A DNA stretch of 64,000 bases from Lepidodermella squamata (taxonomy: Eukaryota > Animalia > Gastrotricha), in contig JBLDXI010000029.1 in the NCBI GenBank assembly GCA_047495785.1, forward strand, positions 1,674,001 to 1,738,000, written 5' to 3'. Below are positions 1-46,653 of this stretch, in pieces. The stretch's first letter is position 1, and each line of letters starts with the position of its first letter. The notes beneath the pieces were generated by a model, which had not been told where the DNA came from, searched no databases, and worked only from the letters and a program-made list of their open reading frames with translations. Made by a program: the position numbers and the translations under genes.

Positions 1-1057
1 CCCGCTGCCAATTTTGGAACCCGGCAAATTTCTGGAATAATATGATTTTGGTGTCAGCCATGTGCTTGCGTTATTATTCTCCCTTCTTTCAACCTTCACG
101 AATCAAAAGTTAAAAATATATCGAAGCTGAAGCTTTTCATGTATAATCCGAACTGTAATATTGGTTTGATTTATACTATCAGCAACATAAAGAGAGTCTG
201 TATTAAACTAAGAGAATTAACAGTGCAACACTTTCGGGTCTGACTAGTCCCGTTAGAAATAGTCTCATTCCAAGAAAATCCGCTTCAGGCTGTATTAGCT
301 AAATTTCACCTTAATTGTATGAAATAATAGTTCAAATTGAATGTTCTCTTCTGCCCATGTTGTAAGCAGGCGCAGACAAATCAGAGCCACGAAAACCTTA
401 AAAATCCGAATTGATTTCGAATTTCGAATTCGAACTTTGATCACACTTTCGAAAATGTGATATCAATTAAAAAATATCAGGTTAAACTAAAATTTACACA
501 TTTGCTTCGATCACATCCCCCACTGTGTACACGCGTAACGCAGAATAGCAGGTCAAACAAATAAATAATAAATAAATTATAATGGGGTTTGCAGCCGCAG
601 TCATTTGAATCCATGCAACTGGCGTGGCTTGGTCATTTTTTTTATTAATTTATTGTAACAATGGCAAACAAATAGTAACTGCCAGTAAAGCAGTTCACAG
701 CAGAATTATCGGGCTAATACGTTTTCTAAACAGCTGATTTTCTTCTTTCCAAAGTGAGATTCAGAATTGGGGGACCGGAGAATCGGGGAGGAATAAAAAC
801 ACCCAAAGTACTGGAGAGCTGTTCGAGTTGAGAGCAGGTTCTACGTCAGAACAAGCTTGCCAAATTGTTCGCGTGGTTGAGGTCCATGTTAAAGAAAACC
901 TTTCTATTAGTTTGTGAGCGTGATAGAACGTGATGTACGTGATTGCGCGTGCCATCACGCTTGTGCAATTACTTGATTAGCGAGATTGTATGCACTCGAA
1001 AGCATAAGAAAATACAAATTACCATAGAATACTCAATGTTCAACACTATTTCTATAT

Positions 1058-1834: not shown

Positions 1835-4800
1835 CTAACGAATTCCATATCCTTCGAATCGGTGATTGCCGCGCAGAACTTTTGTTGCTAGATGCAGCTC
1901 GCTGTTGGTAAACTTTTGCCATTCTCGGCAAAAAAGTGTGCTGATCGGGACGGCGGAAAACCCAAGTGAATACCAGGCCACGGTGGCCGTCAATGCAGAA
2001 GGTTGCGTCCAAAATATGCCAGCTGTAGCAATCTCAGCTACGACAAAAACTGTGCAGCCATACAAACAGATTTTCAGATACTTCGTGTCAGCAATGACCC
2101 CTGGCTTCTGTAAAAGTTATTCCATTGAGAAGCGAAATCAATGAATGAAACAAAATTACCGTTCTTAACAGGAGAATCAGAAACGTCGATCTCAGAATTG
2201 CAATGACATTTGCAACTGCGATCACTGCAATGATACCCTGAGTAACAGCTGTGTTCATGTTTACGGAGCATGAGTAATAAGAAAATTGGTAAGCAATGCT
2301 AGTGAATCTCGACGAGGGTGGAAGTTGTGATTTTACTATCGCAATAGATATTGGTCTAATGCCAAACCAAATGACCAGAGAAGCCGCGATTAGGCTTGTA
2401 TAACCGATGATGAAGCTGACCCCTTTCTTCGTCAACCTCACAACTTCCTTCTGCAAAAAAATATTCGAGGAGCGAACCGATGACATTGTGAGCATGTAAC
2501 GATCAGCGAGTATTGATGCAATTTCTAGCTTCACGTATAGACTTCCAAAAATCATGGAGAACCCAAGAAAAAGAAGAATATAGGAAAATGTACAACTCCA
2601 TCCTATGTTACTTCCGCTCCAAGTTGCTATGAAGAAAACATGACACTGAATCAACAAGCATCCAATCAGGATCGCAAAGTTAACGGCTGGCAAGATTCTT
2701 ATCGAGCCCAAGTAACGTTTGCTAATAATTTTGAGGCGGAGTAATCCAATCGTTATAATGACAAACACCAAACCAGTGGCTGATATAAAATGTAATATAT
2801 TTACTCATGCTTAAAATTTAAATCCAACCTACCGTAGAGCGATCCGCCAACGTATGCATCAATTAGAGGCTTCATGATAACAATGATTTTGAGGCTGTCT
2901 GGTGGTGGATTGCCATCATAAGTGCTCCAGATTACTGGACTTCTCGCAACAACTTTGTATCCCATCTCGTTGTCCTGCTGATAAGCAAGAACGGGAACTA
3001 AGCCCCACCCGCCCAGCGAATTCTGGCGCATCTGGGAAATGGCAGTCAAGGAATACCCTGCCGACCATCCTTTCGCCTCCATATCAGGATCCAATGGGTA
3101 GTCATTGATTAAACCGCGAAAGCCAACGTTATAAATGCTCGTCTCCATTACACGGATGAAGTCATTACCTGACTTCTTGAATTTCTCGCCTCCGGTGACC
3201 CAGTCTGAAAGCGTCTCATTACCTAATGAAATGTGGTGGAATTTAATTTCGGGTATATTTACACTTTTAATTTACGTTGATTGAGTAGTTTCTCCGTTTC
3301 ATTTAGCCAAAAAGCCGTGAATAGTATGTTTTCATACATTCGAAGTGGGTTACTTATCGAGCTAGTGATGCGTGGCGGGTTTTCGATTCGATCATCCATG
3401 ATTGAGTCAAAGTCACGAGCTGACAATCCCGTGATGTCCGTCATGTTTCCATCGGCCAGTTCGGTGTTAGTGAGAACTGTGAGGAAAAAGGTGTATCGCA
3501 GCATCTCGACCAGCATTTCGGTAGTACACCACTGTCGAGTCAAAGGCGCGTTTGAGTAGTCGCCTGGAGTGGCAACAGAGGTGGCAATAAAGACATAATT
3601 GGGACCATAAACCCCTGTTTTGTACAGCAAGCATAAATAATCCACGGAATAATCGCCAGGTACAACGATTATTCGGGCGTCATTTACTGTTGCTTCCTCA
3701 ATTGCTCTCGCCATCCTTGCTAACGGGTCTGGGCAGGGATAAGACAGATCGACCGCAGCGTATCCAACGAGGGTCAAGTTTAGGTGATCCATCTCGCTGA
3801 GGAGTCTTCGTTCACGCTTGAAAATGCACAGTCACTATCTGGTATTTAAGATTACTTTCTTATCAGTTACCTCAAGCAACTGAGCTGCGTCTGAATTTAT
3901 TTGATTGATGAATGCGGCCCTTGTCCAACCGTTTTGCTTCATGAAGTGGGCGATCGCTGCTTGTCTGTCGACAAATGTTGTTCCGAAAGCGTAAAATGCT
4001 CGATTTAAGGCGCGGTCACTCATAATATCAGCATTTGCATAACAGGCAGACTGCAATCAAGCGTAGGTATATTATATAATATACGGAAGACAAAAAGGGT
4101 TTATAATCGCCTGAAGGCTTATATATTTCGGCCTGAGGCGCAGCACTATCAGCACTATTTAAACCCATATAACCTGATTGGCTTCCGTATATGTGTGTTA
4201 TCCGGGTCGAATCGTAAAATTTTCAGGGTTACTAGTATCGTATGGTACACTCTCGCAGAATTTCTATTGATTTGATTTGAAATTAAAAGATCCAACTTAA
4301 AAAAATCATGAAATTTGTTTCTTGCTCATTTTTTTCTCGCATTCTTCATTTTGCGAGTTTTTGGTTCGTTTTTCACAACGAATTTTCCGCATTTCTGGGA
4401 CGCCAAACAAATTGCTGGTGCTGAATCTTGCAATCGGGCTCTCGCACTGGTTCTGCTCGATTGGCTTCCGATGGCTATTAATGCGACTATCAATGGCAAC
4501 TCGGTTTGCAGAGCTGCTTCTAAATCGACGAAGAACACGATCGACGAAATCTTGAACGAATAGCTGCAATTTGTCACGGTTTCAGCAAACGCCCGACAAG
4601 ACTTGCTCGAATTCGTCTACTTCGCTCGATTCGCTGTGTCTTCTAGCTTTCACTGCCACAATCGATGCCGTGTTGCGATTTCTGGAATCCAATGCTGCCC
4701 GAGCTCTCTCGGATTTCATGGAAAGCTGGCCGATTGTTTTTTATTTCCGCGACATGTTGGACGAATTCTGCGCGAATTTCGCCAATTTCTGGACGAATTC

Positions 4801-5705
4801 TGCCCGAATTTCCCGAGCTCGTGGCTAAGTGCTGTTTGATTGGGGTGAATGCTGCCCGATTCGATGCCTGGCTTGTGCAATTTCTCCCGAAATTATGCCA
4901 AATTTTTCGCGATTCTTAATAAAATCGTTTTGGAGTGTTTGAAGTTTTTAGGGTTTCTCTTGTGTGTTTGACAAGTGGGGTTTTTGGTGATATTTTTTGG
5001 ACAGGCAGGGATTTTTTTGATATTTTTATATCAAAAAATGCCCGCCAGTTTAGAAAATATCAAAAAATTCCTGCTTGGAAGAAGGTTTTATGAGTTTATA
5101 ATTCGGCCATTAAGAAGGCATATTTTACGATACGATCCGGATAATAACCAGCAATAAACAAAAAATCTTATCGCATACCCCTGAAAAATTGTAATGATGG
5201 AAAACTGGTGGTTGTTTACGCCAGCCGCTGTTGAAACCTGCAAATACCGGCAACCGATCCAACTTTCCCGGCTCATGCAGTATTGGCATCAAACGGATTA
5301 AAGGGCTCGTGAAATACTATAAAGATGTGGACATCTTAGTTATAAATCTCTCTCCCTTTTTAAAGAAGGGTTACTAACCAACATATTCTCAGCCTCGTCG
5401 TATACATCAAGCACAAGTTCGTATTTTGGTAGTAGATTGGGGATCAGTTGCACGCGTTCAAGAGCCAATTGCATCGCCATGGAGCCAAGAGGACCTCTAG
5501 ACACCACCGGTGCGTAGGGGCTCATAGTCATGTTGTAGAAAAGTAAAGTGACTATGCCTATTTGCTTGCGAGAGGTCGTAGTTTGATTGCCTTGGGACGC
5601 TGTTAATCTAGCGGGCAACCTCGACTTGAGCATTGATAACTTGACTGTCTCGGTTTGAAGTATGGCTATGGCGAGTAACACGCAGACTCCGATTATTTTC
5701 CTCAT
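1835..5705 (-). CDS. Multi-exon class C GPCR, GABA-B-like architecture (Venus flytrap + 7TM, no Cys-rich linker)
   Basis: Signal peptide MRKIIGVCVLLAIAIL at 5705. VFT motifs in ORF pieces: AMQLALERV..LLPKYEL, FMKQNGWTRAA, ARIIV..CLLYKTGVYGPNYVFI. 7TM pieces (GFSMIFGSLYVK) at 2088-2771 and 1835-2065. Exon boundaries near 4150-5180 are uncertain. Confidence 0.8.
4198..5144. mobile_element. ~950 bp non-autonomous TIR element inside the GPCR gene
   Basis: TTATCCGGGTCGAATCGTAAAAT (4198) vs ATTTTACGATACGATCCGGATAA (ends 5144): 23-bp TIR with 2 mismatches. Interior has degenerate GACGAATTCTGC repeats. Confidence 0.65.
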
Positions 5706-5857
5706 TTTGTTGAAAAAAAGTGAGATTGATGGCGAATGCATGCAAGTGAATCTTTGGTCTCTTTCGAGTGCACACAATCTGACTAATCAGGTAATTGCAC
5801 AACGTACGTCACGTTCTATCCGCAGACAGGTTTTTTAACTTCAGCACTATTTCTGCA

Positions 5858-5985: not shown

Positions 5986-6538
5986 CATCACCTCATCAGT
6001 ATATTTGCCAGCTTTCTTCATTTCATCACAAAACGCAACGAAATCGATTAGCTTTTCAACGTGATCTGGCGCTAGCTTCTGACAAGTCGTCGTTCTTATT
6101 CGAATCGTCATATTATGTCTTGTCAAGACTTTGGCGATCCAACCATTAGAGGCCCTAAATGGCGCATCAACCATCAACACCACACTCGGCGCGTACTGCA
6201 ACCTTGCTTGGTTTCCAAATGTAAAAACTGATTAAAATAACTGAAAATGACGTTGGGAACAATTCGGATCGCTCATTGGGATATCTCGATCGGCAATTGG
6301 GAGAAATTGCCTTATACGATACGACATACACATTGAAAAGCATGAATATCAAACACATGATTTCATGACAAAAACGTTATTTCGGGTCGCAAAAGTCCTT
6401 GTATTTCATGCCTCTGAAGTTAGGGCTCGATTCTGTCCCCAAATTCATTTCGCGTGCTGAGTTTCATGGGTTTGAAAACTCAATGTTGCCTTTTTTCCTG
6501 TGTTCTTAACGAGGGGGCTTATATTTCGATAACTACGG
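5986..6538 (-). mobile_element. Truncated pogo/Tc2-type transposon: terminus plus CENP-B-type HTH transposase fragment
   Basis: Minus-strand end ta|CCGTAGTTATCGAAATATAAGCCCCCTCG matches the TIR family at 54029. ORF 5965-6201 reads FRASNGWIAKVLTRHNMTIRIRTTTCQKL..VEKLIDF, the F.AS.GW...RH....R..T..QKL signature of pogo/Tc5 HTH domains. It breaks off before the DDD domain. Confidence 0.8.
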
Positions 6539-6580
6539 TATTTGTATCATGCCTAACTGATAATATATGAGATTCTTATT

Positions 6581-6654
6581 CGGCACCTTTCGGCACCATT
6601 CGGCACCATTCGGCACCATTCGGCACCTTTCGGCACCATTCGGCACCACTCGGC
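6581..6654 (+). repeat. 10-bp tandem array (CGGCACCATT) x7.4
   Basis: Read directly: cggcaccttt cggcaccatt cggcaccatt cggcaccatt cggcaccttt cggcaccatt cggcaccact cggc. Confidence 0.97.
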
Positions 6655-6821
6655 CTTGCGCGCTGTTTAAACGCTGCGGAAAGATAGAAAGCGCTGAAGA
6701 ATAAATAAATAATAAAAAAATATAAATACATCTTCTATAAATATATAAAAAATAAAAAATATTATTTGTTTTGGCGTTTTTTTTGAATCGAAACGAGTCG
6801 TTGGTTACGAACAAAGAAGTC

Positions 6822-6871
6822 GGTAGCCGGTTACGACATAGGTAGCCGGTTACGGCATAGGTAGCCGGTTA
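6822..6871 (+). repeat. 19-bp tandem array (GGTAGCCGGTTACGRCATA) x2.6
   Basis: Units start at 6822, 6841 and 6860. Confidence 0.95.
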
Positions 6872-6970
6872 TGAAGTCTCACTGTGCAGAGCTGCAACCG
6901 TTATTCACTAGAACTTTATCCATCGATATTCTGCGACTATTTCTTCTGCTACACACAGTTATTCACAGTT

Positions 6971-7294
6971 ATGCCGATTTTTAACCCGTTCCACGCATCC
7001 TCTTGGGTGTTGGGTGGCGAAAACATCCCAAAAAATAACTCTGACATTGTTGTCTCGACGACGCTACCTGTGCCTGCTACAAGCAATGACACAGTTCTTA
7101 ACTCAATTTTAAATCTCGGCTGTGAAACGCATGCTCTTGCGATAACGATTGCATGCTTATCCATAACTTTGATCGCTATGACTGCAGTCTTCCTTGGTTG
7201 GTACCTCCGACGATTTCGCTGTTGCTGCAAAGCTAAGCCTAGCTGGAGATCATATTCTAATGGCCATACTCCGCTCACCAATACCCGATTTTAA
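6971..7294 (+). CDS. Small single-pass membrane protein (107 aa), unknown function
   Basis: ATG at 6971. S/T-rich N-terminus with sequons NNS and NDT, hydrophobic helix ALAITIACLSITLIAMTAVFLGWYL, then RRFRCCCK (positive-inside, palmitoylation-like). Confidence 0.55.
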   Translation: MPIFNPFHASSWVLGGENIPKNNSDIVVSTTLPVPATSNDTVLNSILNLGCETHALAITIACLSITLIAMTAVFLGWYLRRFRCCCKAKPSWRSYSNGHTPLTNTRF

Positions 7295-7717
7295 GTTAAT
7301 AATTTTACATTTTCTCTCTAGCATGAACGCATCAGCATTTTTAAAGTATTCTAATATGGACACTTCTATCTTCAGGTATGCCCCGCCCTACCAGCCGACG
7401 GAGGTCAAAATGCTCGCTGAGGTGTATCTGGCTCACCTCTTGATGGCGGTGTTATGGGGCTTCATGATGGGAAAGCTGATGTGACATCTGACTACTGACA
7501 TTCCTGTGAATTATCTACTATCGTGAAATCTATCTGAAAATATTTGCAATATCTATTTACATTCGCCGTTTTACAGCGGTACCAGTGAACAAAATGAACC
7601 TGTTTGCGTTCTAGTTTAGTCAATATATTCGCAATGGAGTTACATTTTTGCAACATTTTACTCTCAATAATATCAATTAAAGAATTCCATTCCTGATGTT
7701 TTTTAGACTTTTTCATC

Positions 7718-8891
7718 ATGTTTGTTCTGCTTCTCATCGTTTCGATTGCGAGCTCATTTGCTGATCCTGCTTCCGACGATTTCAAACTTCTCGACATATT
7801 CAAGTTAGATGACGAGAGTGTGGACCATATCATCAATAAGCGCGATGTCGCAGTAGAAAAGCAAGATACGCCGGAATTGTTCGAGCTGATAAGTGGCATG
7901 CAGTACGTCAGCAGCTACAGATCAGGTCCCAATGAATGTTTTGCTAACTTCACAAATATTGGTAAATGCATGTGGTCTGGCCAGACTTTATTTTCAGTTT
8001 ATTTTTTACTTTGCAGCGGAGAAAATGTGCAAATGGCCACTGACGCCGTCAGTTTGGGACGAGCTATCCTTCAAAATGCTTTCATGCATTCATTCCCACA
8101 ACTGTCATTCAATCACTTGTGTAACGAGACTGGATGACGACGCAATAAGGACATGGGCAACGATGCTCGGAGTCATTAGCCCAATCTGCGCATACTTCAC
8201 GACAAACTTCTCAACTTTCGCGTTTTCACACACATCATCTTTGTTTGAATCGTATAGCGCTGACGGAAATACTGCTATGCAGTTCATGCATCGTTTGCTT
8301 CGATTTCTTGGCCAGTTTCGCCCCATTCAGTTTCTCGTTTGCCATTTTTGGCCATTTTACCAGTTTCAGCCGGTTTTCACTGCCACGCATTACATCCCTC
8401 ACGTGATTTTCATCATTTTTGCTATGTGGAAGCAGTCACAACGAGGTTTTATTGCCGCAACGGTGAGCTTAGCCATCGAGCTTTTTTATACTCGCATTAT
8501 TTCTTATTGGCTCGGCAGAATTCTTTCTTTGATTTATCTGGATTTTTACACCGTGTCAATCTTTACGAGATATTTTATTCTCTTCGCTTTCTTTGGCCTC
8601 AAATCATTCCTCTGTTTCTATTACCTGGGCAATTTTTGTATTTTCATCTGGTCAACAACTTTTCTATACATCCGAAATATGTTCAGAGGCGATAAAATAG
8701 TTCACATTGAAATTGATACCAAAACGGTAAATCCTGAAAGTGAAGCTAAAACAGTTCAATTTGTAATTGAGGCCAAGGCACAAGATGACACAAAAGAATG
8801 CTCCTGCATGCACGGTGGCTGCGTGGCAACTAAAACTGCATCTGGTTGCTCTGGCTGTGGCAGGAGAGTGTCAAGCAGAAAGCGCAAGTGA
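7718..8891 (+). CDS. GEX1/Brambleberry/Kar5-like membrane protein, short form (exons 7718-7961, 8017-8891; 372 aa)
   Basis: A 55-nt GT-AG intron (7962-8016) joins the two ORFs in frame. Signal peptide, then C-x11-C-x18-C-x5-C-x4-C-x22-C with CVTRLDDDAIRTW...IC, about 3 TM helices, and a Cys-rich basic tail. Confidence 0.65.
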
Positions 8892-9161
8892 ACGAAAATC
8901 TCTCAGTTTTTTCAACTATTATTTGTATCACCCAAAATACTTTTTCAATCTAATCATATTTCCGAGTCGAGATTTTTCTCGTACATTTTTCTTACGCTTC
9001 AATAACAAAATTTTCATTGCTTCTGTCATTTCTTCTTGATTAATTATTTCAGTTTCCTTATTGCGTTTCTTATAGCGGCTCATAAAAATGTCCTGTTAAT
9101 CCAATTAAACCTTCAGGAAAAATAGCTGAACGTTTGTTTTCCATTCTTAGAAAAATTTACC

Positions 9162-11502
9162 ATGAGTGATATTCCGAACGCTGGAGAGGCTGCTGGCATC
9201 AATCCAGAAGCAAAACGAAGCGATAAGAATCTTGTGCGCGAGGAGAACGGTCGATTCGCACCTCAACTACCTTACAGTCGAAGAAATAGGATCAAACGCA
9301 ACTTGAATCGATTCTGCATCTTTTGCAAATTGAGCTTCTCAACAAGTTACCTGAAAAAGCATATAATGAAGTTTTGCGCGGACGCTAAGGTGGCTCCGGC
9401 AGCAGCAGTGGAAGAGGCTGTACGAAATGTTAGACGTGCCGTTATCGACAAAAATGTGTCCAACAAGCGTCCCGCCTCACCTGCTAAATCAAAACGTCCG
9501 TTTACAAATTTGGAAAACTTCTACACTCCAGGTGATGTTCAGAACAAAGCCTCAAAGCGCGCAGACGAAACATCACGCAATGAAATAAGCTGTCATATTT
9601 GTAACTCACTGCTATCTCAATCTGGGACTTCTTCTTCTGACATGAGCTGCAATTGCGGGCTTTCCAAGACTTCAAATCTGCCGGCTCAATCTGTCCGCGG
9701 GTCGCCGCAAGATTCTGAGCTTGGAACAAGCTGCCGCTGCTCTCGGTGTGGTTTGTCTACCCCTGCAAATCGTCATTCAACTGCTGCCTCTTCATCAAAT
9801 GAGAGTTGCCGATGCGAGTTTCCCTTAGGTAAAAAACTTTACTCGCTATAATGCCGGTTTTCATTTTCACTTTCAAATAACAGACGGAATACCCTATGAT
9901 TCTTCGACGCCTATCTTTCCAAGCGCAGTTGCGAGAAATTCATCTCACCCAGTTGGTTTTCGAAAACACGTTGACAGCATCAACTTGGTTCGTGCATCGA
10001 ATGCAGAAGATACTGGCGAAAGCAGCTTTGATGGCGAACAGAGCGGAAGCGACGCGCTTGAGACTGGCGAAAGCAGCTTTGATGGTGAACAGAGTGGAAG
10101 CGATGCGCTTAACTCAAGCTTTTCCAGCTTTTCATCGGATGACGACGACGATCCATTTCCTGCTACATTTGCTCACATGAAATCGCTACTAACCGCTGGT
10201 CTTTCCGAAATACCCATGCCAGCTACCACGTTAGCGAAAAAAGGTGCCGTAACAACAGGGCCGACTCGCCATCAACCTTCGATCAAAATCCCTGGCCCGT
10301 TGAAATGTATTTCAACTAGTTCTTTCGAGCAGAACGTAGCTTCTGGGTCCACCAACTCTGGCCCAACACGCAATTCTATGTCCAAGGACCTATTCAATCT
10401 GCTGAGGGTTCGGTACGGCGATCGTAATTTCATGATCTATAAGCACCAAGAACCACGGAACCAGAAAACAGTTGAAACCAGGTCTTCGGGGCTGAAGACA
10501 GTCGTCGAGTTGAGCGGTATTCAATGTCTGGCAGATATGTTCAACGTGGATTTATGGTTCGACTTTTTTCAAAGTGAAAAATCCATCTCTAGTAAATGGA
10601 AAAAAGTCGACAAAGTTAAACCTTCAACTTCCCACGGAAGATTGATTGCTGCTCGTGATTTTCTCTTAAAATACCGGGATGGGTTTTTAATTGATCGGAG
10701 GGAGACTACCAAGGCAGAGCGTGACGCATGCGACGAAGTCATCAAGGATTGTCTCGACCCCCAAATCAAAATATTGAATAGCCTTCGATGGAAGGCTAAT
10801 CAGGTTCGAAAGCATGTGCGTATAACTGAAAACGTCACCATCTTCACTGCCCTTAAGTATGGTCAATTTATCGAAGAATTTATCGCCAGTATGGAATCTC
10901 AAGGTCTTAAGGTTCCATACACCTACCGAGTCGCGTTGATCGCCGTCAAAATGAACGCGAAGAACGGTTGTCGGCCTACTAGTATATTTGGCATGAAACT
11001 GGACGAGTTTGAAGATGGTCGGAGTGAAATCCCTGGGACTAAAACTGTTTATGTAGGTGACACGAAGCTTTCACATGGCTGCTTCCCTTACGTCACTCTT
11101 GATGATGAGCTGATCAACTTGTACACAGAATATCTTGAAAAATATCGCCCTAAGCCCCAAAATTCTGAAAGTGAACCATACGTCCTTCTTCGTCGTGACG
11201 GCATGAAGTTCGAGAAGCTCAATTATTATGCCAATGCCTTGTGGGAAAGATTCCTGTTGAGCTTGCCTGAATCCGAACGGCCCAATAATGTCACCTCATT
11301 TAAGTTCTCCATGCAAAGACGCATGATGCAAACAGCTTTCCGTAATAATCGAGTTCGTGATTTGACGCCGGAGATGAAATTAATGGTAGATCAGTTTCTG
11401 CATCACACCGAGACTACTGCTGTTGCATCGTACCAGCAATACTCGGCGCCTACTGACCACGCTTTTATTTTTGCCAAGTTCAATTCATTTATGCGTAGCT
11501 GA
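9162..11502 (+). CDS. Zn-finger + tyrosine recombinase (exons 9162-9828, 9884-11502; 761 aa)
   Basis: A 55-nt phase-1 intron (9829-9883) fuses the ORFs in frame. N-terminal CxxC..H..C finger (FCIFCKLSFSTSYLKKHIMKFC). YR motifs: NGCRPTSI (R, 10972), GDTK (K), FSMQRR (R, 11317), FLHHTETTAVASY (H-x8-Y; Tyr at 11431). Confidence 0.85.
10012..10110 (+). repeat. 51-bp in-frame duplication (TGESSFDGEQSGSDAL x2) in the YR linker
   Basis: Units start at 10012 and 10063. Confidence 0.95.
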
Positions 11503-12371
11503 AATACTTGAAATTCCGATTGTTGATGATCCTGAACCGTGACGATCGTAATGCAATACTCTGAAGTTGCTATTATGTATTTATTATTTATTAATTTATT
11601 ATGAGTATCAGCGCAATTTTTTCACAATTACCAATTGGAATAAAGTTGGAAGGCGAATAAAACGCGGGATATGACTTTTTTACTCGTTTTGTTTCAATTT
11701 CAGGCAAATAAACGTATTTTAGCGGTATTCGTGGATTTATTTTTGCTGAATAAACTTTTTCAGGCTGGCTTCATCATTTTACAGTACCCTATAACAATAA
11801 ATCATTAGAAAACGCAATAAATCCGAAGATTCTGCTTTCCGTGCCAAAAATATAAAAATCTGCCCACGAATTATCTAACTGATAGATCTCCATATTACGC
11901 GTGAACAGTCATTTGAAGAGTTTTTAAGTTGTTTAGCCTTCAGAGCCTGTTGGTTCCAAGTATCAAGTTACAAATCAGTGTCTTCTCAGATATCAACCGT
12001 CAAGGAACTTTAAACTTTGATTCCAATAAGAATATAGGACCCTAAAAATATTGATATTCCTAAAACCAAAGTCATCGCAAAGCCCCTCAACAAAAATAGG
12101 ACGACTGTGCCCGCAAATAAACCGGACTTCTAGACAGGCCGATAGATTACAAGACGAAGCTTCGGCGATTTTAATAACAGGTTGAATAGAGCGGTCTTCA
12201 AAGCAAGCCCGAACTGAAAAATGTCGATGATCATTTTAAATAATGAGTAAATTGAAAGAAAAAGCGATCAAAATAGAAGAATGGAATACATACTAAGGTG
12301 GATTTTTTATTCCATTTTCAGGTGCTCGACAAATTAATATTTTAGAATTTTTGCGAATAAGAGGATATATG

Positions 12372-14181
12372 TCAGCTCAGGCCGAGGCATACAACTTCCC
12401 GCTCTGAAAGTGCGGCAATAATGTAAGCATTTCCGATGGCATCGACTGGAGTCGTGACAGCTCGAACCCAAGGCGCGTATATTTTGTCCGGCTTCTTCGT
12501 GTCCCCGTGCAAATTGATCGAAATAGAGCCAGCTGTAGGAACCATCGTCGCTAGTATTGGATTTGACGTCCACAAATGCTGCCACGGCTTGTTTTCAGTA
12601 TTTTCCTTATTGAGCTCAAATAGCTGAAGAAAAGGAAATAATAATAGTAAAAAATTACCATCCAAAGATCAGTGATAAAAATAAAAATAATAAAATTTAG
12701 ACGCGGGAAAAGAATTCGTCGAGAAGATAACATTTCGCATTTTTGGGGAATTTATTTTCGAAAGTTTGAAATAAACAATGAAAATTTAATTTTTATCTCA
12801 CTTGAACTCGATCATTGAGGCCATCAGCAATCCAAAGTGCGCCATCAGACTCGGAAAAGTAGACACCCAATGGGTAATTAAAATGCGCATCATCGCGTCC
12901 TTTTTCGGCGGAAAAGGTTTGTCCTAGTGCGGAGTCGACCTGTGAGTTGCCAATTCTCGAAATTCTGAAAATCATTAATCGATGCAACGAATCGACAACG
13001 GCAAGATGAGTAGTCGCCAAGTCTGATTGGTCGACGAACGCCGAGCAGTTAAACGGCTGAAAATCGACTGATTGCTGAATTTCCGTGATTTTCTCGCCAT
13101 TTTCCAACGACCAAACGCTAATTGAATTCGGCCGAAATCGATGGCAGACGAATAACAGGCCTTTTTTAGCCGCAAGCCCGAAAAACCATCGATAAAGTCC
13201 ATCACTTAATTTTTCAGGTTTTACGAAAGGCTTCAAATTTCGATCCAAGTCGACGATTTTTGGCTCTGGAGGTGGCTCGAAGCTAGCTATTGAACTTTTC
13301 GATTTCGCCAAGGCGTCACTCTCATCGGTGTTAATGATATTTGTCTCCGGTATATCGGTCAAATTTCTTGGACTCACCCCGGTCGACGGTGGTTCTGAAG
13401 TCAGGGCGTTGTTGACCAGCGAAGAGCGACGCCGGGATGACGGCTTTTGGGGTATATCTTGAACCCGTCTGCCTTCGTGTTCTACGGCTGAGAGTGAGAC
13501 CCAATACACGCCTGATTCAGCCGGGTGAAGGGTGAAATATATTAGGCCGGTATCGAGGTCCATAGCAGCGTGGCAAATTAGCGCTTTTTTGAGCTCGTCG
13601 GGGAAAACGACCTTTGCTTGCCATTCAATCTGAGCCATAGTCGCTTTTGAATCATCTGTTTTGATTGCCTAGGAAAGCATTGAAAGCTTGGAATTATTTA
13701 ACAAATTTCAATTACAATTCGGAATTTTGAAATTTAGTAATTTCACATTTAATTTTTTGACGAAGTGACAGTGAAATTCGCAAACAGTTTTATCGAATTG
13801 TCTCCCGATTTTTCATCATCGAAATTTCTGACTCGAAAATTACATCTATTATTTTTGGCTGAATTAAAGTAGTTTTTCACTTACGGAAATTGTCCCGTCT
13901 TCAGAAATAGCCAGTACAAGGTTCGATTGTTGTAGTAAAATCAAACTGATAACACTCGCCGGCGGGTCGAACCATTTTTTCGCCTTGTGGACGGCCAGCC
14001 GCTTCAGCCTAGCCCAGTAAATGTCTCTCACAGGCTTTGCCACCACATCTTCAGGAGCAGGAGCGCTTTTCTGGGCATTATCACTATCGTGTTTCGGCGA
14101 GGTTACAAGTTCGGAATTAGCTGCTGCCGGTGGTGCTTTACGAGGCGAAGATGGTACCCTGGTAAGAGGCGCTTTCGACAT
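12372..14181 (-). CDS. NHL-repeat / beta-propeller protein (exons 14181-13885, 13668-12802, 12623-12372; 471 aa)
   Basis: Two phase-0 GT-AG introns join three ORFs. NHL-like motif FNYPLGVYFSESDGALWIADGLNDRVQ. Confidence 0.75.
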
Positions 14182-18889: not shown

Positions 18890-19651
18890 ATGGCTGATTT
18901 AACTCATCTGCGGGAACTTGTTGATAGCGGTGATCTCGAGCAGTTGAAAAAGGTCTTCGGATCTCCTGCTGATATTCTCAAGCACAAGTTCGAGTTTAAA
19001 TTTGATGTTAGCGTTGAAAACCAAACAGCTCTACACCGAGCCATCTTAGCTGGCCAGCTCGAGGTCGCCAGATACTTGATGTCTGACAAGGAGGCTCTGA
19101 AGGAGCACGTTAACGACAAGGATGACTTGGGCTACACACCCTTAATCGAGGCAGTCTCGGCGAAACAAAGCTACGTCGAGATTGCGCAGGCGCTCATCGA
19201 CGCCGGTGCTACGATTGTGATTTCAAACAGCTGTAACTGCTTGATAGTTGCAGCAGCCCAGGACAAACCAGAAATGGTGCACCTGTTGCTGGAAGCTCTG
19301 AAAAAGCAGAACAAGCTGGAAGAAGTGAATAGTGGGGACCAATCTGGCGAAACTCCTCTGATGAAAGCAGCCACGAATGGAAATGTAGGCATGATTGAGG
19401 ATTTGCTGAAATACGGAGCTGATGCGACGAAGGTTTCTGGCCCTGAATACCCCTATTCAGCTCTTCTTTATGCTGTAAAGTACGCCAAGGAGGAGAGTCG
19501 GCTGGCCACAATTAAACTGTTGGCTGATATTTACAGACAAAAGGATCCAAAATTGTTTGAATTTAAAGACAGTGATGGAAAAACAGCGCTTGATTTGGCG
19601 AAGGAAGCTGGCTATGCGGACGTTGTCGAGGAACTGAGTCGAACTGCCTAA
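18890..19651 (+). CDS. Intronless ankyrin-repeat protein, soluble
   Basis: Ankyrin motifs TALHRA, GYTPLIEA, GETPLMKA, GKTALDLA. ATG chosen by the MADL start shared with paralogs. Confidence 0.9.
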   Translation: MADLTHLRELVDSGDLEQLKKVFGSPADILKHKFEFKFDVSVENQTALHRAILAGQLEVARYLMSDKEALKEHVNDKDDLGYTPLIEAVSAKQSYVEIAQALIDAGATIVISNSCNCLIVAAAQDKPEMVHLLLEALKKQNKLEEVNSGDQSGETPLMKAATNGNVGMIEDLLKYGADATKVSGPEYPYSALLYAVKYAKEESRLATIKLLADIYRQKDPKLFEFKDSDGKTALDLAKEAGYADVVEELSRTA

Positions 19652-20108
19652 TTTTTTGTTCCTGGTTCTATGACTCATGATAAGTACATTGAACTGCCAT
19701 TGCACGGATTGAAATAAGCTAAATGTTTCAAATTATCACATTTCAATATGGGAAATTCCGCATATTTTAATTGTTTCACTCAATAAATTATCCGATTCTT
19801 GAAATGCGTCGGGTTTTCGTCTGGCTTTAATAAATAACTTTGAAAGTAGGACGCGGTGTTTTTTATTGATCGTTGTCAGAGTTTACGCAGCTAGCTTTTA
19901 GCTTTCATACGTATGTTTTAGCGCCTGCACGGATTTTTTGCCTCTCAGTGCCAGATATACAAATACCTGTTATAAAAAATCTTCTTATTGTATATAACTA
20001 GTATACCCTGTAGAGAAATTCCGCCTCTATACACGCAATCTATTACTTACAAGAAGATATAATTCCCTTGTATTTATTTTCCCTACAGCAAAGAATAATT
20101 ATTTATTG

Positions 20109-20999
20109 ATGGCTGACCTTCTACTTCTCCGAAAATGTGCCGAGACTGGGGATCTTGCGAAAATTAAAGAGGTCTTTGGAACTCCAGCGCTGATTTTGAA
20201 GCATAAATTCGCCCAGGACGAGTACGAATGCAACGAGAATGCAACTGCCCTACATCGAGCTGCAGCAAAAGGTCAATTAGAGGTGGTAAAATACTTACTC
20301 TCCGATAAAGCTGCGACTCAGGAACATGTTGACGACGTTGATAGCCGGGGTTACACGGCTTTAACTGAAGCTGTTTCATTCGGGTCGATCGAACTCATTG
20401 CAGCTATGGTAAAAGCTGGTGCAAAGATGGAGATATTCCCTGGGGCCTCGATCAGCGCATTGGTCACTGCCGTATGCATGGATCGGCTCGATTTGGTTCA
20501 ATTTTTACTACAAGAGCTAAAGATTCAAAATAAGCTGGACACCATCAATGATACCGATAGTAATGGCGAGACTGCTCTGATGAAAGCTGCGCAGAATGGG
20601 AATCCGGTTATCATCGAAGAGCTGCTGAAACTTGGAGCGGATTGTTCTCCCAAATCTGAATCTTCTCAGCGAACAGCTCTTCATTATGCTGTGAATATGT
20701 ACGGTAAAGAGGAAGATCGCATCAAGTGTGTTAGGCTGATTGCTGACGCGATGCGAAGACGAGATCAAACGATGCTGGATTTGAAAGATAGCGATGGCTT
20801 GACAGCTCTAGATTTGGCGAAGCAAGGCGGCAATAGAGATGTGATCATAGAGCTTGGCGGTGCTGTCGATGAGCCGAAACCGACTGTCATATCAGAGGCT
20901 GCTTCGCCTCTGGCGAATCTCACGATTCTTACAGCTGGCATTCCTGTTCTACTTGCAGCAGCTGCTGTGGGAATGTGGCTCTACAAAAGGAGCAAATGA
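20109..20999 (+). CDS. Intronless ankyrin-repeat protein with C-terminal membrane anchor
   Basis: Ankyrin motifs; ends ILTAGIPVLLAAAAVGMWLYKRSK. Confidence 0.9.
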   Translation: MADLLLLRKCAETGDLAKIKEVFGTPALILKHKFAQDEYECNENATALHRAAAKGQLEVVKYLLSDKAATQEHVDDVDSRGYTALTEAVSFGSIELIAAMVKAGAKMEIFPGASISALVTAVCMDRLDLVQFLLQELKIQNKLDTINDTDSNGETALMKAAQNGNPVIIEELLKLGADCSPKSESSQRTALHYAVNMYGKEEDRIKCVRLIADAMRRRDQTMLDLKDSDGLTALDLAKQGGNRDVIIELGGAVDEPKPTVISEAASPLANLTILTAGIPVLLAAAAVGMWLYKRSK

Positions 21000-39963: not shown

Positions 39964-40578
39964 ATGACAGATCACTCTCTAATGCGGAAACTCATCGAGA
40001 ATGGTTATATATCTGACAAAGCTACAACTGTTGAGCATGCCAACGACCAAGATTCAAAAGTATCCAATCTGCTAATCGAGGCTGTTTCTGACGAATCTAT
40101 AGACATTGTTGAAATGCTGGTCGAAAATGGTGCGAAGGTTGAAGCAGGCGCCTTGATTGCTGCTTGTGCTGCGGATAACAAGGAGATTGTTCGCTATTTC
40201 CTTCAGGTGCTGAAATCTAGGAACCAGCTTAACGAAATTACCAACGCAAGAGACGAACATGGGAATACCGCTATTCTGATGGCAGCCTCAATGGGTGGAG
40301 ATGGAGTCATACCTCTGCTGGTCGAAGCTGGAGCAGATATAAGCCAGAAAGACAATCACGACCGAACAGCGCTACATAAAGCAGTTCAGGCTTTTACATC
40401 CCTGAGGAGACTCGAGATTTGTGTTCGAATGATTGCTGAGTTCATGGTACAACGCGATCGGGATTTGTTGCTTGCAAAGGACAATGACGGCAAAACAGCT
40501 TTGGATCTGGCTAGAGAAGCGAATGGTTTGCAAGATGTTGCTGCTTATCTAGAAGTATTGTTATCTTCATCCGTCTGA
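39964..40578 (+). CDS. Intronless ankyrin-repeat protein, short divergent soluble copy
   Basis: LIEAVS, GNTAILMAA, RTALHKAV, KDNDGKTALDLA; N-terminal repeats shortened relative to paralogs. Confidence 0.82.
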   Translation: MTDHSLMRKLIENGYISDKATTVEHANDQDSKVSNLLIEAVSDESIDIVEMLVENGAKVEAGALIAACAADNKEIVRYFLQVLKSRNQLNEITNARDEHGNTAILMAASMGGDGVIPLLVEAGADISQKDNHDRTALHKAVQAFTSLRRLEICVRMIAEFMVQRDRDLLLAKDNDGKTALDLAREANGLQDVAAYLEVLLSSSV

Positions 40579-41260
40579 GAAACAGCAACTTGAATGAATC
40601 AATGCGTTGAAGCCTTAAACATTAAATTTATAAAATTCTAAGGAGTGTTTCCCAGTGTTTATATTCCAGAGTCCAGAGCAATCGCGCTCAAGTGCGCGAA
40701 GTAGGATCCTCGAACTAGGGGGTATTTTCGGGCTCTAATTTCATGACCAAAGGGCCCCCGTGGATTTTTCTACTTTGGCCGAACTGGGCAGTACAATACC
40801 TGACGAAGGTATCTTCCACGGCGGCCAAATGAATTGAGGACAGCGCGAATTCCATTCGATATTTCGAATAATCTGCTGATTGATAAAGTGCCTGTTTATC
40901 TCCAGCAAAACGAACAACAATGACGCTCCAAAAATAGCTCCAAGGAAAGGGGGATAGTTTTAATACTATGAATATATTCATAGTATGAAGGCTAGCTATG
41001 CAGCGGAATAGTGGCCTGGCGAACGATTATTCATCGCTGTCCACCGATGACACCCGGATTATGGTTGTTTCCCGGCGTAAAAAATCATCATATCAGTCTA
41101 CATATCTTAACTCAGTCTACAAGGCCGGTGTATGCACTCTATAGGCGGGCATAATTATATGCATAATTGAATGGTTTATCGCCAGCAGTGTGCATACCAG
41201 TAAGTTAACTTTTTATTGAGAACAATCGGTAAGAAAGTGTTTCTATTCTAGTTCTTCCTT

Positions 41261-43597
41261 TCACCTGGTGTAAATTCTCTTAATAGCGGCCTTTTGACTC
41301 AAAGCGTCAAATCTGCTCAGCATTTGCGATGACGGAAGCCGAGACACTGCTTCGCCTGCAGCATCCGCTCCGTCCCCGACTTTGACGTACAGCAAAGCAG
41401 CCACTATTCCCGATTGAATTTGCAGTCCAACAGCGACAGCAATATTCTGTCCACTAGTAGATTTCAGCATAAAAACAACCGCAGTTAGAGCAAGATATAA
41501 TGTTGATGAGACAGCTATCGCCACGGCTAATCGCTTCACGAAGGGAAAATACGGCAAGTATCGATTCCCGACAAGTTTGACAACATAAATCAAACCTACT
41601 CCAAGGACTGCGAGATTCAATACCAGAAGAGCCGCCGACCATGCGGTGGCAAAATTTGACGAGCACATGACAGAATACTCTTCTACATAAGTATCGGTTT
41701 CAGCAATGTAAGACCTGGAGTTTTCTGGTTTTGCAATAACTGCGCGGTAAGGATCGGACGTCAACCAAGAAATGACAAGGATAAAATTGAGAAGAAAAAA
41801 GAAAAGTGTTTTGGCTATGAAGGAAGCTTCCTCCCTCCCCGGATCAGGGGTGCCGCGTTGACGTGTTGATGTTCTTTGGCGTAAGACTTTCGAAGCAGAC
41901 CTCAGGCGGAATACCAAATAACCGTACAACAGTGATAGCCCCGAAGCAACGGTGAATATACTTGCCTCGCAAACAGAGCTGTCACGCATTGAGGTCGGAG
42001 TTGCGAGAAGAATCGACCCCAATGATATGAGCAGAAGGCTCAGCACTGCAAGAAATTCATCAATTTTTCTCCCGCGGCTCCTTTTATCCTGTAAAACGGT
42101 ATAGGAAATACCGCAGATTTGGCAAGCGACAACCAGGCAAGATGTTGCTGTCAAGAATACGAAGACTGCCATGGGGACCCCGGCATCCACGTACTCTTCA
42201 AAAGCAGCATCTTTAGGAAGAAAATTCCGTGGGAATTGCGCAAGTGCCCGTATTTTGAACAATGATGGATCGTTGATCGTCTTAGCATTGTCATCCAAAG
42301 ACACGGCATATCTCGCCTGAAGTCCTGTCTTTTGCGACCACGTGGCTACCAGTTGAACTTCATAGTCCATTTCCATTCTTGAAGAGTAGTGAAAGAAGCC
42401 ATGTTCTTGATTCCGATACCTTAGGTTTCCAATACTTTGATTAACAGCGAGCATTACATTTTGAGGATCGTCCTTGAAATTCCGAAGTGTAGAGTTCTGA
42501 CTGTTCAAAAGCTTTTCCGCTTCGGCAAGCGTGACTACAGAATGCAAAGCAGAATCGTAACAGGAGAATCGCAAAGGATAATCAGCCATTCTCATGTCGA
42601 TTGGATAGTTAGATCTGAGGTAATTTTCAAACTCAGGCAGGGTGTTCCCCAAATAGTCCTTGCTTATACCGTCGTTACCACTGGGAAGTGAAAATGGGGC
42701 CCCAAAATACAACACTCTCTCAGCTTGCTCCTTGTAAATGGAGATGTTGCAGTTCCTCGGGTAGAAATTGGGTGGGAAAATATTAGGATCTAAGTAAGAA
42801 CCGACGAAGGTTAGGAACATGTACTTATAACCCCTTATCCCGTTTTTGTATGCCTGGCATAAGAAATTGACAAATATGAATGGATCGATATTTTCAAAAG
42901 AAAAAATACGGATGTCCTTTCGGATAAAAGACTGCATTACATCATCATTGAAGTCTGAACTTGCTTCTATCGTTTGAACCCCGAGGCCGAATCGGTTATT
43001 CATTGCAACTGTGTAAGTAGCTGCCTCCAACCCAAAAGAGCTCTCATTTGCCGGGAATACAACCGCAGTTTTCTTCCATAAGGTGAATTGCTTGATGAAG
43101 CTTAGTCGAGCCATTATCGTTAATTGGGATGAGGCTTTGATACGCCATAGGTTTGGATACAGATCCCTTCGGTCAGTTAAACTTGGCGCGGAGCAAGACG
43201 ATGATATCATTACCATGTTCATATGAGACGCAACTCTGCCCCAACTCTTACAGCCGAGAGTTTGAGCCACGCCGACTGTTACTGGGGCTAGGAATAGCCC
43301 AGGCTCTTCTGAATCCAACATCGACCGCATGAAGTTGATGCTTGTCGAGGTTGACAACATAGCTTGTGGTCCTTCGTCGCGATGCTCAAATTCGAGATGG
43401 TAATCGGGTAGAATGTCGGAGCGATTATTAGCAAATTCGTAAGCTGTTTGAAAGGCCCATCGGCAGTTTCTGTAATCTCCTGTGTTGATTGACAATGAAA
43501 CCAGGTAAAGTGTTCGCAAACGGTAAGGCTTTCTACCCTCAGCCCGATGCGATACCAAGGAGGCGAGGAGAATAGAACATAAAAGCGCTATTTTCAT
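41261..43597 (-). CDS. Intronless class C GPCR, copy 5
   Basis: 778 aa paralog. Confidence 0.9.
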   Translation of the reverse strand: MKIALLCSILLASLVSHRAEGRKPYRLRTLYLVSLSINTGDYRNCRWAFQTAYEFANNRSDILPDYHLEFEHRDEGPQAMLSTSTSINFMRSMLDSEEPGLFLAPVTVGVAQTLGCKSWGRVASHMNMVMISSSCSAPSLTDRRDLYPNLWRIKASSQLTIMARLSFIKQFTLWKKTAVVFPANESSFGLEAATYTVAMNNRFGLGVQTIEASSDFNDDVMQSFIRKDIRIFSFENIDPFIFVNFLCQAYKNGIRGYKYMFLTFVGSYLDPNIFPPNFYPRNCNISIYKEQAERVLYFGAPFSLPSGNDGISKDYLGNTLPEFENYLRSNYPIDMRMADYPLRFSCYDSALHSVVTLAEAEKLLNSQNSTLRNFKDDPQNVMLAVNQSIGNLRYRNQEHGFFHYSSRMEMDYEVQLVATWSQKTGLQARYAVSLDDNAKTINDPSLFKIRALAQFPRNFLPKDAAFEEYVDAGVPMAVFVFLTATSCLVVACQICGISYTVLQDKRSRGRKIDEFLAVLSLLLISLGSILLATPTSMRDSSVCEASIFTVASGLSLLYGYLVFRLRSASKVLRQRTSTRQRGTPDPGREEASFIAKTLFFFLLNFILVISWLTSDPYRAVIAKPENSRSYIAETDTYVEEYSVMCSSNFATAWSAALLVLNLAVLGVGLIYVVKLVGNRYLPYFPFVKRLAVAIAVSSTLYLALTAVVFMLKSTSGQNIAVAVGLQIQSGIVAALLYVKVGDGADAAGEAVSRLPSSQMLSRFDALSQKAAIKRIYTR

Positions 43598-45019
43598 TCT
43601 TCGATGAGAACGATATAATCTGACAGTGACAGAATGGCCTGAGAAAGGACACCTCTAATCGTTTTCTCCGCCTCCCCATCATCTTATTTAACTTGTCTGA
43701 GCCAACACTTTCGAACTTCCGTCTTAAAGAGTTTCCGCTTCATGAAGGTCCTGTTCCGACCCACGCCCATCTATTAGCAAATAAATAGGAAACACTTTTA
43801 GCAGCCCTTTCTTCCACTGCCGACTTAATTATAAGAATTCATAGTGCGTTACTACTTCAATATGCATTGAACGGTCGGAAATGCTTGAAAGCTGAATCTT
43901 CCCCGTTGGTGTGTAGGTTGCTTCCTGTGCAGCAGGCAAAGAATTACTGTCTAAGGGCGATGAGACGTAAGGACAAATGCATGTCCATCGTCAATTGCAT
44001 ACCACAGACGAATTCACTTCATCCCTTGATTTTGAAATAGTGTTTCAACTTATTGCACAGGACAAAATAAAAAGCCTCCTTGAATCATCTCTCAAAGTGA
44101 TATTCAATGCCTCAAGAAAAAAACGTTTATTGATAGTTCGTGGTCAATGGCGAAAATGTCATAATTTCGATGAAGTTTGTCTGCTGAAAGGTGAATGTGG
44201 GACAAAGTTCAAAAGGGTCAAAAAGTTATTCTTTCCTGCCCTTGGAAACAGGTCCGTCGAATGACATCGCACAACTGTAACCCAGACAGATCATGCCGCG
44301 GAAAGTTTTTGATCGATGTTTGCCGCCTACATCATTGGTATCCGCTGTTTTTCTCGTGCGAAGACGCAAGCATGCTTCTGTTGGCAGAATTTTCTATTCG
44401 CGCTCCTATAAAACGTAATTTAATCTCTCGAATGTTGCTACGACTGGTCTCGGCATATACTGAAACGAGAAGTTTAAGAGGCTATTTGTAGACATTTTGT
44501 TGGTTACTCATATGTTCCATGTTCCTGTTTTTTCATTGTCCAAGCTCACGTGAGGTTTAATTCAGGAATGATTGAAGACGATGCGTACATTACGTACATA
44601 CCTGTAAGCGCAAATCCTCTAACATTTTGCACCCACGCAAGGCCCATCGCGTGCCAGATAGCTGGACAAAATTGAATGCCGGTTCTGCGAATTTTAAAGT
44701 TTTCCGCCATCTGTTTCTATTTAAGGCAACACGTTATGGCGCCCACCTTTAATAATTCATAACAACCCTTGTTTTTCATCATCGGAATGCTGCACTCACG
44801 CATACCTTTGATGACATAATTTCGAGCCGCACTAGCAAAAAACAAGACACATCACACACCACATGAAAAATTCCATTTAGATTTCCTTGCGTGACCCATA
44901 TTCTGGGGTAGAAATCGAATTTTCTGTATTCTCGTCTGCCTAGAATAGGTTCTTTTTCATAAGGTCTGTCTCTAACTTAGATATTTTAGTCTCAATTTGA
45001 TTCACTAATAAACATTCCA

Positions 45020-45766
45020 ATGGCTGATCTCGCAGTTCTCAGGAAAGCAGCTGAAGAAGGCGATTTGGATACTTTGAAACGCGTTTTCGGCTCTCCTAGT
45101 CAAATTCTGAAGCACAAACTGCCGCAAGATGAATATGAATGCAATGGTAATTCAACTGCACTACATCGGGCTGTTCGCAAGGGTCAAATCGAGGTCGTGA
45201 AATACCTGTTATCCGATATTGAGGACTCTGCTGTCAAGGAGAGCGTAAATGAAAAGGACGATCGCGGGTACACGGCTTTGATCGAAGCTGCTTCTGCCGA
45301 CCCGCCGAATCTCGAGATTGCAAAGCTGGTAATCAAAGCCGGCGCGAAAAATGACACCAATCCTGAGCTGCCAGCGCTCATTGCTGCTGTTTGCGCCGAC
45401 CAACCTAGCATGATTAAACTGATGATCGATAATTTCGGTGACCAAATCAACGTGGGTGATGTGAATGGCGCAACGCCGTTGATGAAAGCGGCCGAGAACA
45501 GCAATGCGGATGTCGTCAGTGAGTTGTTGAGGGCAGGGGCTGATCCTTCATTTCGGCATAATGACAGTCAGCGGACTGCCCTTCACATCGCAGTTACCGG
45601 CTGGGGTAAAGAAGAGAACCGTAAAAAATGCGTGATTTCAATCGCGTCTGCTATGAGACAGCTGGATGCTAGTTTGGTTACGCTGAAGGACAGTGAAGGC
45701 AAGACAGCTTTGGATCTGGCAAAAGAGGCAGAGGGCATGGACGCTGTTATCACTTATTTAAAGTGA
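45020..45766 (+). CDS. Intronless ankyrin-repeat protein, soluble
   Basis: MADL start and ankyrin motifs; no hydrophobic tail. Confidence 0.9.
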   Translation: MADLAVLRKAAEEGDLDTLKRVFGSPSQILKHKLPQDEYECNGNSTALHRAVRKGQIEVVKYLLSDIEDSAVKESVNEKDDRGYTALIEAASADPPNLEIAKLVIKAGAKNDTNPELPALIAAVCADQPSMIKLMIDNFGDQINVGDVNGATPLMKAAENSNADVVSELLRAGADPSFRHNDSQRTALHIAVTGWGKEENRKKCVISIASAMRQLDASLVTLKDSEGKTALDLAKEAEGMDAVITYLK

Positions 45767-46653
45767 TATGACAACTCCGTCGGCCTAGAATATTTTCTAT
45801 AGTATGTTTGACTTTTTACTGTGAAAGAAATGGCCAATTATTGTCGATGCTTTCAGGAGCCGAGAGCCGTGATCGATAAGCTATTAAAACAGACCTCTTT
45901 GATGTCCGAAAAAACAAGAACAACATTATGAGCTAATTTTCCCACCTTTTTCATTTTCTACAGCAATTATCGCGTTCATTATAGTTCCCCGACTTAATCA
46001 CTATTTGATTTTTGCTAACACGATGATGAAATAACAACGATTTTTTCTCTTGCACTGAGAAGACTGCCTGCTAACCTTGTTTTGTGCGTTCGAGAGCTCT
46101 TGAAAATAAATGAATTCGTTAACAAGAATCAACTTTGATCTCAAAACAGGGCTGTAAAAAGCCATGCGGGTAAGTGGCTGTACAAAGGAATCTGGACAAG
46201 AAACAGGCTCAATGAATCCGAGCATTCATTTGAGATAGCATTCATGTCTTTTGAGTGATGAGTGATCACGCGTTGAAAAAAGCGATAATCGCTGATTTTC
46301 AACAATATATATGTATTATTTAAATTTCTTCAATTCCTTACTGGTTAAACACATTACCTCGCCGGAAATTGTCTCAACTCGAAACCCAAGACGCAACAAA
46401 GTCCATTGATTTTTCTTTTCAAATTTCTCGCGAGACTTGTCGTAGCAATGATTTATGACGAAGCATACACCTGGTGGTATTCACTATTGATGTTTTTTGC
46501 AGCTTAAATAATTCATAATAGTCACTGTTTTTTCGTGCTCAGAATGCCGCACATACCTGCATAGCTTTGACGGCGTAATTTCACGTCGCACTAGCATAAA
46601 ACATATAGCTGACATTTTTCTCGATTATAAGAGACAACATATTAAACGCTGCA

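Follow-up and report, generated by a model that had tools for sequence, protein, structure and literature searches.

A GEX1-related gene lies inside a 5,322-bp insertion together with the gene for a likely tyrosine recombinase, and this combination is what is new here. The earlier note on this DNA had described the gene without the insertion, a context that raises the value of the feature. The three genes of the insertion are on the same strand and encode a 107-aa single-pass protein, the GEX1-like protein, and, last, a recombinase-like protein (Table 1; positions are those of the window, by which we mean the whole 64-kb stretch of DNA that was analyzed). Our best reading, which we hold with slightly less than even confidence, is that of a Crypton-like element carrying a stalkless GEX1/Kar5-type protein for a role at the nuclear envelope that helps the element to enter the nucleus.

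Table 1. Features of the inserted element, with positions in the window
Feature	Position	Strand	Remarks
Insertion (5,322 bp) and, after it, the second 10-bp repeat	6553..11884	+	X2 contig skips it
Left 10-bp direct repeat CTAACTGATA, likely recombination core	6553..6562	+	Its two occurrences in the window start at 6553 and 11875
Subterminal 10-bp tandem array, 7.7 copies	6578..6654	.	
19-bp tandem array, 2.6 copies	6822-6871		After the 10-bp array
107-aa ORF	6971..7294	+	Membrane segment 56-74, preceded by two N-glycosylation sequons and followed by basic residues and three Cys
Exon 1, GEX1-like gene	7718..7961	+	Encodes a hydrophobic leader, an acidic stretch (dibasic site at residue 41), and the first of the six Cys
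Six-Cys domain (residues 74-139), interrupted by the intron	7937..8189	+	Probably of GEX1/Kar5 type
Predicted intron, 55 nt, GT-AG	7962..8016	+	Top among 159 joins compared to P0004
Exon 2, GEX1-like gene	8017..8891	+	Cys 2 to 6, 66-aa linker, 3-4 membrane segments, Cys-rich basic tail
Membrane region, residues 201-286	8373..8630	+	Motifs conserved in P0001, P0004, P0005, and P0006
Cys-rich basic C-terminal tail	8799..8888	+	Absent from homologues
Likely recombinase exon 1	9162..9828	+	C2H2 zinc-finger match, E 0.037, below cut-off
Likely second intron, 55 nt, GT-AG	9829..9883	+	Picked by length and donor site from 23 listed joins that restore the frame
Likely recombinase exon 2	9884..11502	+	Tyrosine-recombinase-like domain; 761 aa if spliced
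Right 10-bp direct repeat	11875..11884	+	Joining the ends in silico gives an inverted repeat around a spacer

The insertion and its surroundings

The boundaries of the insertion are seen in contigs of the sequencing run X2, which may be the source sample. One X2 contig represents the empty site, joining 6552 to 11875 and skipping 5322 bases, with 10 letters ambiguous, and other X2 contigs span the left and the right filled junctions. The ambiguous letters are the 10-bp direct repeat, of which the empty site has a single copy. The inner contig (5,231 bp) has a depth of 57 and three flanking host contigs have depths of 125 to 133, which fits an insertion on one haplotype, contig depth not being copy number; separately assembled flank contigs are at 63 to 71. 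Diverged copies of the insertion flanks (6450-6552 and 11885-11980) are present on other X2 contigs. Given this repetition, the contig lacking the insertion could come from a paralogous site instead of the second allele, and a host repeat could be what the element targets.

Further traces of the element occur outside the window. Two contigs, loose-ended at 6558, have its left end on other flanks; an X2 contig with a different interior has a related right end, related right ends in the run X1 continue into other sequence, and a stretch related to the recombinase gene and matching 11089-11177 is on another contig. Within the 64-kb window, tblastn found no second copy of either the GEX1-like gene or the recombinase gene.

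The junction of a circle formed in silico from the two ends has a 6-bp inverted repeat around a 5-bp spacer. Recombinase sites have arms of 11 to 13 bp and spacers of 6 to 8 bp (PMC3212892, in excerpt), and the resemblance of the circle junction to such a site, though with shorter arms, is suggestive only. No circle joint is among the 13 joints listed, which come from contigs that drop rare forms. Comparison of the first and last 300 bp for terminal inverted repeats gave only an AT-rich internal match, and no match to a reverse transcriptase was found among the ORFs of the element, which leave no room for one. We consider it highly likely that the 5.3-kb insertion is a mobile element; it is small, of recombinase type, and apparently recent.

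The rest of the window looks animal: it has class C GPCR-like and ankyrin genes, both intronless and in arrays, as well as a neurotransmitter symporter and discoidin, PAN, and IgGFc-binding domains. Five intronless class C GPCR-like ORFs of 774 to 778 aa form a tandem expansion on the minus strand (21269-43597), the first of them matching ANF_receptor (E 3.7e-08) and 7tm_3 (E 1.6e-06). Interleaved with this array on the plus strand (18890-20999 and 39964-48781) are six short intronless ankyrin-repeat-like ORFs, three of which end in a hydrophobic anchor; the domain scan covered the first of the six. Pieces of a further, divergent gene of ANF_receptor type lie on the minus strand directly to the left of the element (2088-5741).

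The recombinase-like gene and the small membrane protein

The last gene likely encodes a tyrosine recombinase, as judged by motifs and the layout of the direct repeats. Its ORFs at 9162-9851 and 10177-11502 would yield the 761-aa protein if joined by the second intron. Residues R266, K297, R381, H410, and Y419 (numbered on ORF 10177-11502) occur in the same order as in lambda Int and Cre, with the same His-Tyr spacing of 9 and a similar stretch around the first Arg, and there is a Ser where the R-H-R-Y tetrad of tyrosine recombinases would have its first catalytic His. The alignments to Int and Cre were not significant, their scores being reached by 156 and 714 of 1000 shuffles, respectively. 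Profile searches of the ORF against Pfam, PHROGs, and NCBIfam returned no match, including DUF3504, Phage_integrase, and DUF3435, and the AlphaFold single-sequence model has a pLDDT of 33. A 51-bp in-frame tandem duplication is present at 10012-10110, in the acidic linker of this likely recombinase gene.

Cryptons resemble the element in having a recombinase-like gene and short direct repeats at the ends, with neither terminal inverted repeats nor a reverse transcriptase (PMC3212892, in excerpt). They differ in the length of the repeat, which is 4 to 6 bp in Cryptons, compared to 10 bp here, and the element lacks a match to DUF3504 or Phage_integrase. The second genes that Cryptons carry encode a C48 peptidase, a DDE transposase, or an HTH protein rather than membrane proteins in the consulted portion of PMC13465315. 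The Starship elements of fungi, described in the same portion, are likewise tyrosine-recombinase elements with direct repeats and cargo genes; they are giant and fungal and have a DUF3435 captain, whereas the element reported here is 5.3 kb long, sits in what is apparently an animal genome, has its recombinase gene last, and gave no DUF3435 match.

No family match was found for the 107-aa ORF. Its product has no leader and presumably exposes its sequons on the outside, a layout that recalls small viral fusion proteins of the FAST type. The fact that the element also encodes this predicted small single-pass glycoprotein would suit an origin from a larger nuclear DNA virus, with the element as its satellite or a reduced remnant and the GEX1-like protein helping the virus, or the element packaged by it, to get into or out of the nucleus. 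We regard such an origin as very unlikely, since neither a capsid nor a polymerase nor other viral hallmarks were found in the 5.3 kb, no match was obtained in PHROGs, IMG/VR contigs, or BFVD, and both the sharply defined ends and the introns, which are likely spliceosomal, are in keeping with a transposon.

The GEX1-like gene and its homologues

A phmmer search of 1.84 billion representative proteins with exon 2 gave two matches, P0001 (E 4.6e-13) and P0002 (E 1.7e-07). The cluster of P0001 includes P0004, a 405-aa reading that reaches the N terminus; when the Cys domain of P0004 served as the query, P0005 came up, of which P0006 is a cluster mate. P0006 and exon 2 share 30% identity over 255 aligned columns, and at an identity of about 30%, three clusters have the short layout and the membrane motifs in common. 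P0002 was dropped as a homologue, being a tandem-repeat protein whose E value is summed over four stretches; its approximately four 62-aa Cys-bearing repeats resemble the last helix of the Cys domain.

The queries in the sequence and structure searches were individual exon pieces and homologues. A word-index search retained none of 200 candidates for exon 2 and none of 4516 for the recombinase ORF, and no related loci were found in IMG/VR, JGI metagenomes, or prokaryote genomes. The PDB sequence search gave no match (best E 0.89), the PHROGs and NCBIfam searches gave no family, and the phage protein search returned only tail proteins at E 0.5 to 0.9.

With 7962-8016 (55 nt, GT..AG) taken out, the gene reads from the ATG at 7718 to the stop at 8891 and encodes 372 aa. 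This intron, claimed in the earlier note, ranks first of 159 frame-restoring GT/GC..AG joins in alignment to P0004 (score 313, with the next at 303). P0004 is uninterrupted at the site and has the same C-x11-C, and exon 1 alone aligns to it better than all of 1000 shuffles. The gene is thus very probably spliced, with two exons, homology to P0004 being what supports the join. The note had also looked to RNA-seq over the intron: in X1, the one RNA-like run, no contig crosses it. X1 was taken as RNA by guess, and two spliced joints in a neighboring host gene fit; the GT-AG introns at 12624-12801 and 13668-13883 of this minus-strand NHL-repeat gene are skipped in X1 contigs, so X1 appears to hold spliced host RNA. 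X1 contigs of depth 2 to 4 lie on 8091-8921 and 11182-11575, with none over exon 1 or the intron, and provide a weak hint of expression. Among the runs containing the locus, none is recorded as RNA.

The predicted product largely bears out the architecture described in the earlier note. A signal peptide is consistent with the hydrophobic N terminus (hydropathy 1.76 over residues 1-19), and P0004 has a similar leader. The pattern C-x11-C-x18-C-x5-C-x4-C-x22-C is read in residues 74-139, with Cys at 74, 86, 105, 111, 116, and 139, and the motif that the note quoted is present too; the C3-C5 loops, at 5 and 4 residues, are indeed short, about half the usual length. Of the roughly three membrane helices it had counted, the region itself stands and the number is better put at three or four than at a firm three, since hydropathy gives four C-terminal segments (201-219, 225-243, 247-265, and 268-286; windows 1.29 to 1.72); a weaker fifth window (124-142; 1.22) falls within the Cys domain. 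The Cys-rich basic tail is real in the sequence, with Cys at 343, 345, 350, 359, and 362 and four basic residues at the very end, though it is private to the candidate and not kept in the homologues.

The coiled coil, said in the same note to be missing, is indeed replaced by an aromatic-rich linker of just 66 aa between the last Cys and the motif before the first membrane segment, and both homologue clusters are likewise short at 61 aa; the AlphaFold model of P0006 has at most one low-confidence helix, of 26 residues, in this linker. Because the stalk is missing in the homologues as well, the stalkless form is a conserved subfamily trait and not decay, and the shared short layout is more in line with a streamlined form that has been conserved than with a solitary, broken mimic.

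The Cys domain of the GEX1/Kar5/Brambleberry proteins was reportedly defined across eukaryotes by Ning et al. in 2013. The candidate is like GEX1 of Arabidopsis and other plants, Kar5, and Brambleberry in its leader, in its N-terminal six-Cys domain with a first spacing of 11 and a last of 22 to 24, and in its C-terminal membrane segments and basic tail, which is Arg-rich in Arabidopsis GEX1. P0004 and P0006 have Cys spacings of 11, 18, 11, 6, and 23; those of Arabidopsis are 11, 19, 12, 8, and 22 in an alignment of nine plant GEX1 Cys domains (PMC7586128, part of the supplement), and those of yeast Kar5 are 11, 22, 13, 10, and 24 (Cys 56, 68, 91, 105, 116, and 141; PMC4291462, in excerpt). 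The candidate departs from these proteins in its C3-C5 loops of 5 and 4, its three or four membrane segments, its Cys-rich tail, and its gene, which is part of an insertion and not of a fixed locus of the host. About 66 aa separate its Cys domain from the membrane, compared to about 300 in Kar5 (C141 to TM1 at 445; same excerpt). Members of the family have one to three coiled-coil regions ahead of two or three C-terminal membrane segments. A coiled-coil stalk is counted in the shared architecture of the three proteins (excerpts of PMC4291462 and PMC10609895), and because the coiled-coil region between the Cys domain and the membrane is absent, we describe the candidate as GEX1-related and not as a canonical member.

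For a direct comparison, 48 columns were counted by eye, namely, all non-Cys positions at which no more than three residues occur among the nine plant GEX1 proteins. Of these, 9 are retained by the candidate and 16 by P0004, where a rough hand estimate from residue frequencies puts chance at about 6 to 7. Pfam, including Tht1, gave no family for the candidate exons, P0001, P0004, P0005, or P0006; Tht1 marks only 21% of the GEX1-like cluster in the Atlas. An Atlas structure search with residues 30-130 of P0006 placed "protein GAMETE EXPRESSED 1-like" first of 10 rows, at a TM of 0.40 over 65 residues, a match below the naming bar from a query model with a mean pLDDT of 0.38. The Atlas feature search with P0006 gave unnamed matches only, at 0.84 or less, and no named one at 0.9 or above, and the GEX1 row was not found in the Atlas whole-protein search with P0004. 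In the AlphaFold model of P0006, usable over approximately residues 31-129, the Cys region forms a small helical domain (pLDDT 54 to 83), for which Foldseek found no match at E 0.001 in the PDB or BFVD; the best Z obtained with the model was 6.9, to generic helices.

Profile and fold searches, of the kind that the earlier note had proposed, were divided, with nothing from Pfam or Foldseek and a GEX1-like first row from the Atlas. Its assignment of the Cys domain to GEX1/Brambleberry agrees with the six Cys and gains support from P0004, while the direct match of the candidate itself is near chance. By its sequence features, the domain is probably of the GEX1/Kar5/Brambleberry type, the link running via the homologues and not directly. 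The lack of a profile match, the near-chance agreement with the plant columns, and the halved C3-C5 loops would also agree with an unrelated membrane protein of cell-surface or envelope type whose likeness to GEX1 is superficial, and which would be cut at a dibasic site and perhaps work with the 107-aa protein; such sites are found at residue 41 of the candidate and at 46-50 of P0004. This is quite unlikely, however, given the columns kept by P0004, the near-identical spacing of all six of its Cys, and the first place of the GEX1-like cluster in the Atlas structure list for P0006.

The age of the association between gene and element bears on a further alternative, in which the gene is a lineage-specific short paralogue of a host GEX1, carried as passive cargo that brings the element no benefit. 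Starships are an example of recombinase elements known to pick up cargo genes (PMC13465315, in part), and an AT-rich read-through in P0004 points to an apparent upstream intron in the homologues themselves. However, the two introns predicted in the element have the same donor start and a length of 55 nt each, whereas two neighboring host introns are about 180 and 216 nt, and because the element introns are alike and differ from those of the host, they suggest a long residence of the gene in the element. Moreover, the largest contigs holding P0005 and P0006, at 5,407 and 5,136 bp, match the size of the element and its 5,231-bp inner contig; they hint at a family of GEX1-carrying elements, of which one locus has been read. 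P0001 and P0004 sit on contigs of 2.3 to 2.9 kb. Taken together, we find passive cargo unlikely.

A possible role in nuclear entry

The reading that we tentatively prefer, that of a Crypton-like element with a nuclear-envelope protein of its own, would operate as follows. The predicted recombinase would excise the element as a circle at the 10-bp core, and excision as a circle has been proposed for Cryptons (PMC3212892, in excerpt). In the egg or the cleaving embryo, the excised circle would acquire an envelope of its own and would have to merge with the nucleus before reintegration. The lumenal Cys domain would cluster the protein, which would either bridge nuclear membranes alone or recruit the full-length fusion protein of the host, and the membrane-wrapped circle would merge with a pronucleus or karyomere and then reintegrate. 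In yeast, the conserved Cys region localizes Kar5, anchoring it at the fusion site (PMC4291462, in excerpt), and zebrafish Brambleberry is needed for both pronuclear and karyomere fusion (PMC10609895, in excerpt).

That the GEX1-like protein serves the nuclear entry of the element is possible, though it falls short of probable. Against it, both coiled coils of Kar5 are essential for fusion in yeast (PMC4291462, in excerpt), and the candidate does not have them. The wider proposition, that small animal DNA transposons exist as a family with a minimal stalkless GEX1 of their own, used to merge the membrane compartment of the circle with pronuclei or karyomeres, is rather unlikely.

The missing stalk could instead point to a dominant-negative or selfish modifier, whose Cys domain would bind the host fusion protein and delay or bias pronuclear or karyomere fusion for the carrier chromosome. 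Kar5 without coil 1 still couples membranes yet fails in inner-membrane fusion (PMC4291462, in excerpt), and a natural GEX1 mutation results in semigamy in cotton (PMC13763932, in part), both of which would be in keeping with such an effect. Nonetheless, the conservation of layout and motifs among the three clusters fits a positive function at least as well, a toxin-antidote-like pair is not evident in the element, and there is no known host partner, so that we consider a modifier of this kind distinctly improbable.

Full-text literature searches, whose scope left out most subscription papers and Repbase reports, did not find GEX1 together with a tyrosine recombinase and, within the same partial scope, did not find it paired with virus and mirusvirus. 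Among the literature matches listed, none reports an element-borne brambleberry or GEX1 copy in its title or at the start of its abstract.

The fusogen of the inner nuclear membrane is an open question (PMC4291462, in excerpt), and the GEX1/Kar5 proteins are the main candidates. A conserved natural version that lacks the stalk isolates the Cys domain and the membrane anchor and is testable in yeast, Arabidopsis, and zebrafish mutants. If the nuclear-entry reading is true, the element would have its own route into the nucleus of the germline, egg, or embryo, of which no description was found in the literature searched, and karyogamy machinery would be seen in a transposon for the first time. 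It would also mean that animal DNA transposons can carry membrane-remodeling cargo, and it would offer a natural minimal construct with which to ask whether the Cys domain and a membrane anchor constitute the inner-membrane fusogen.
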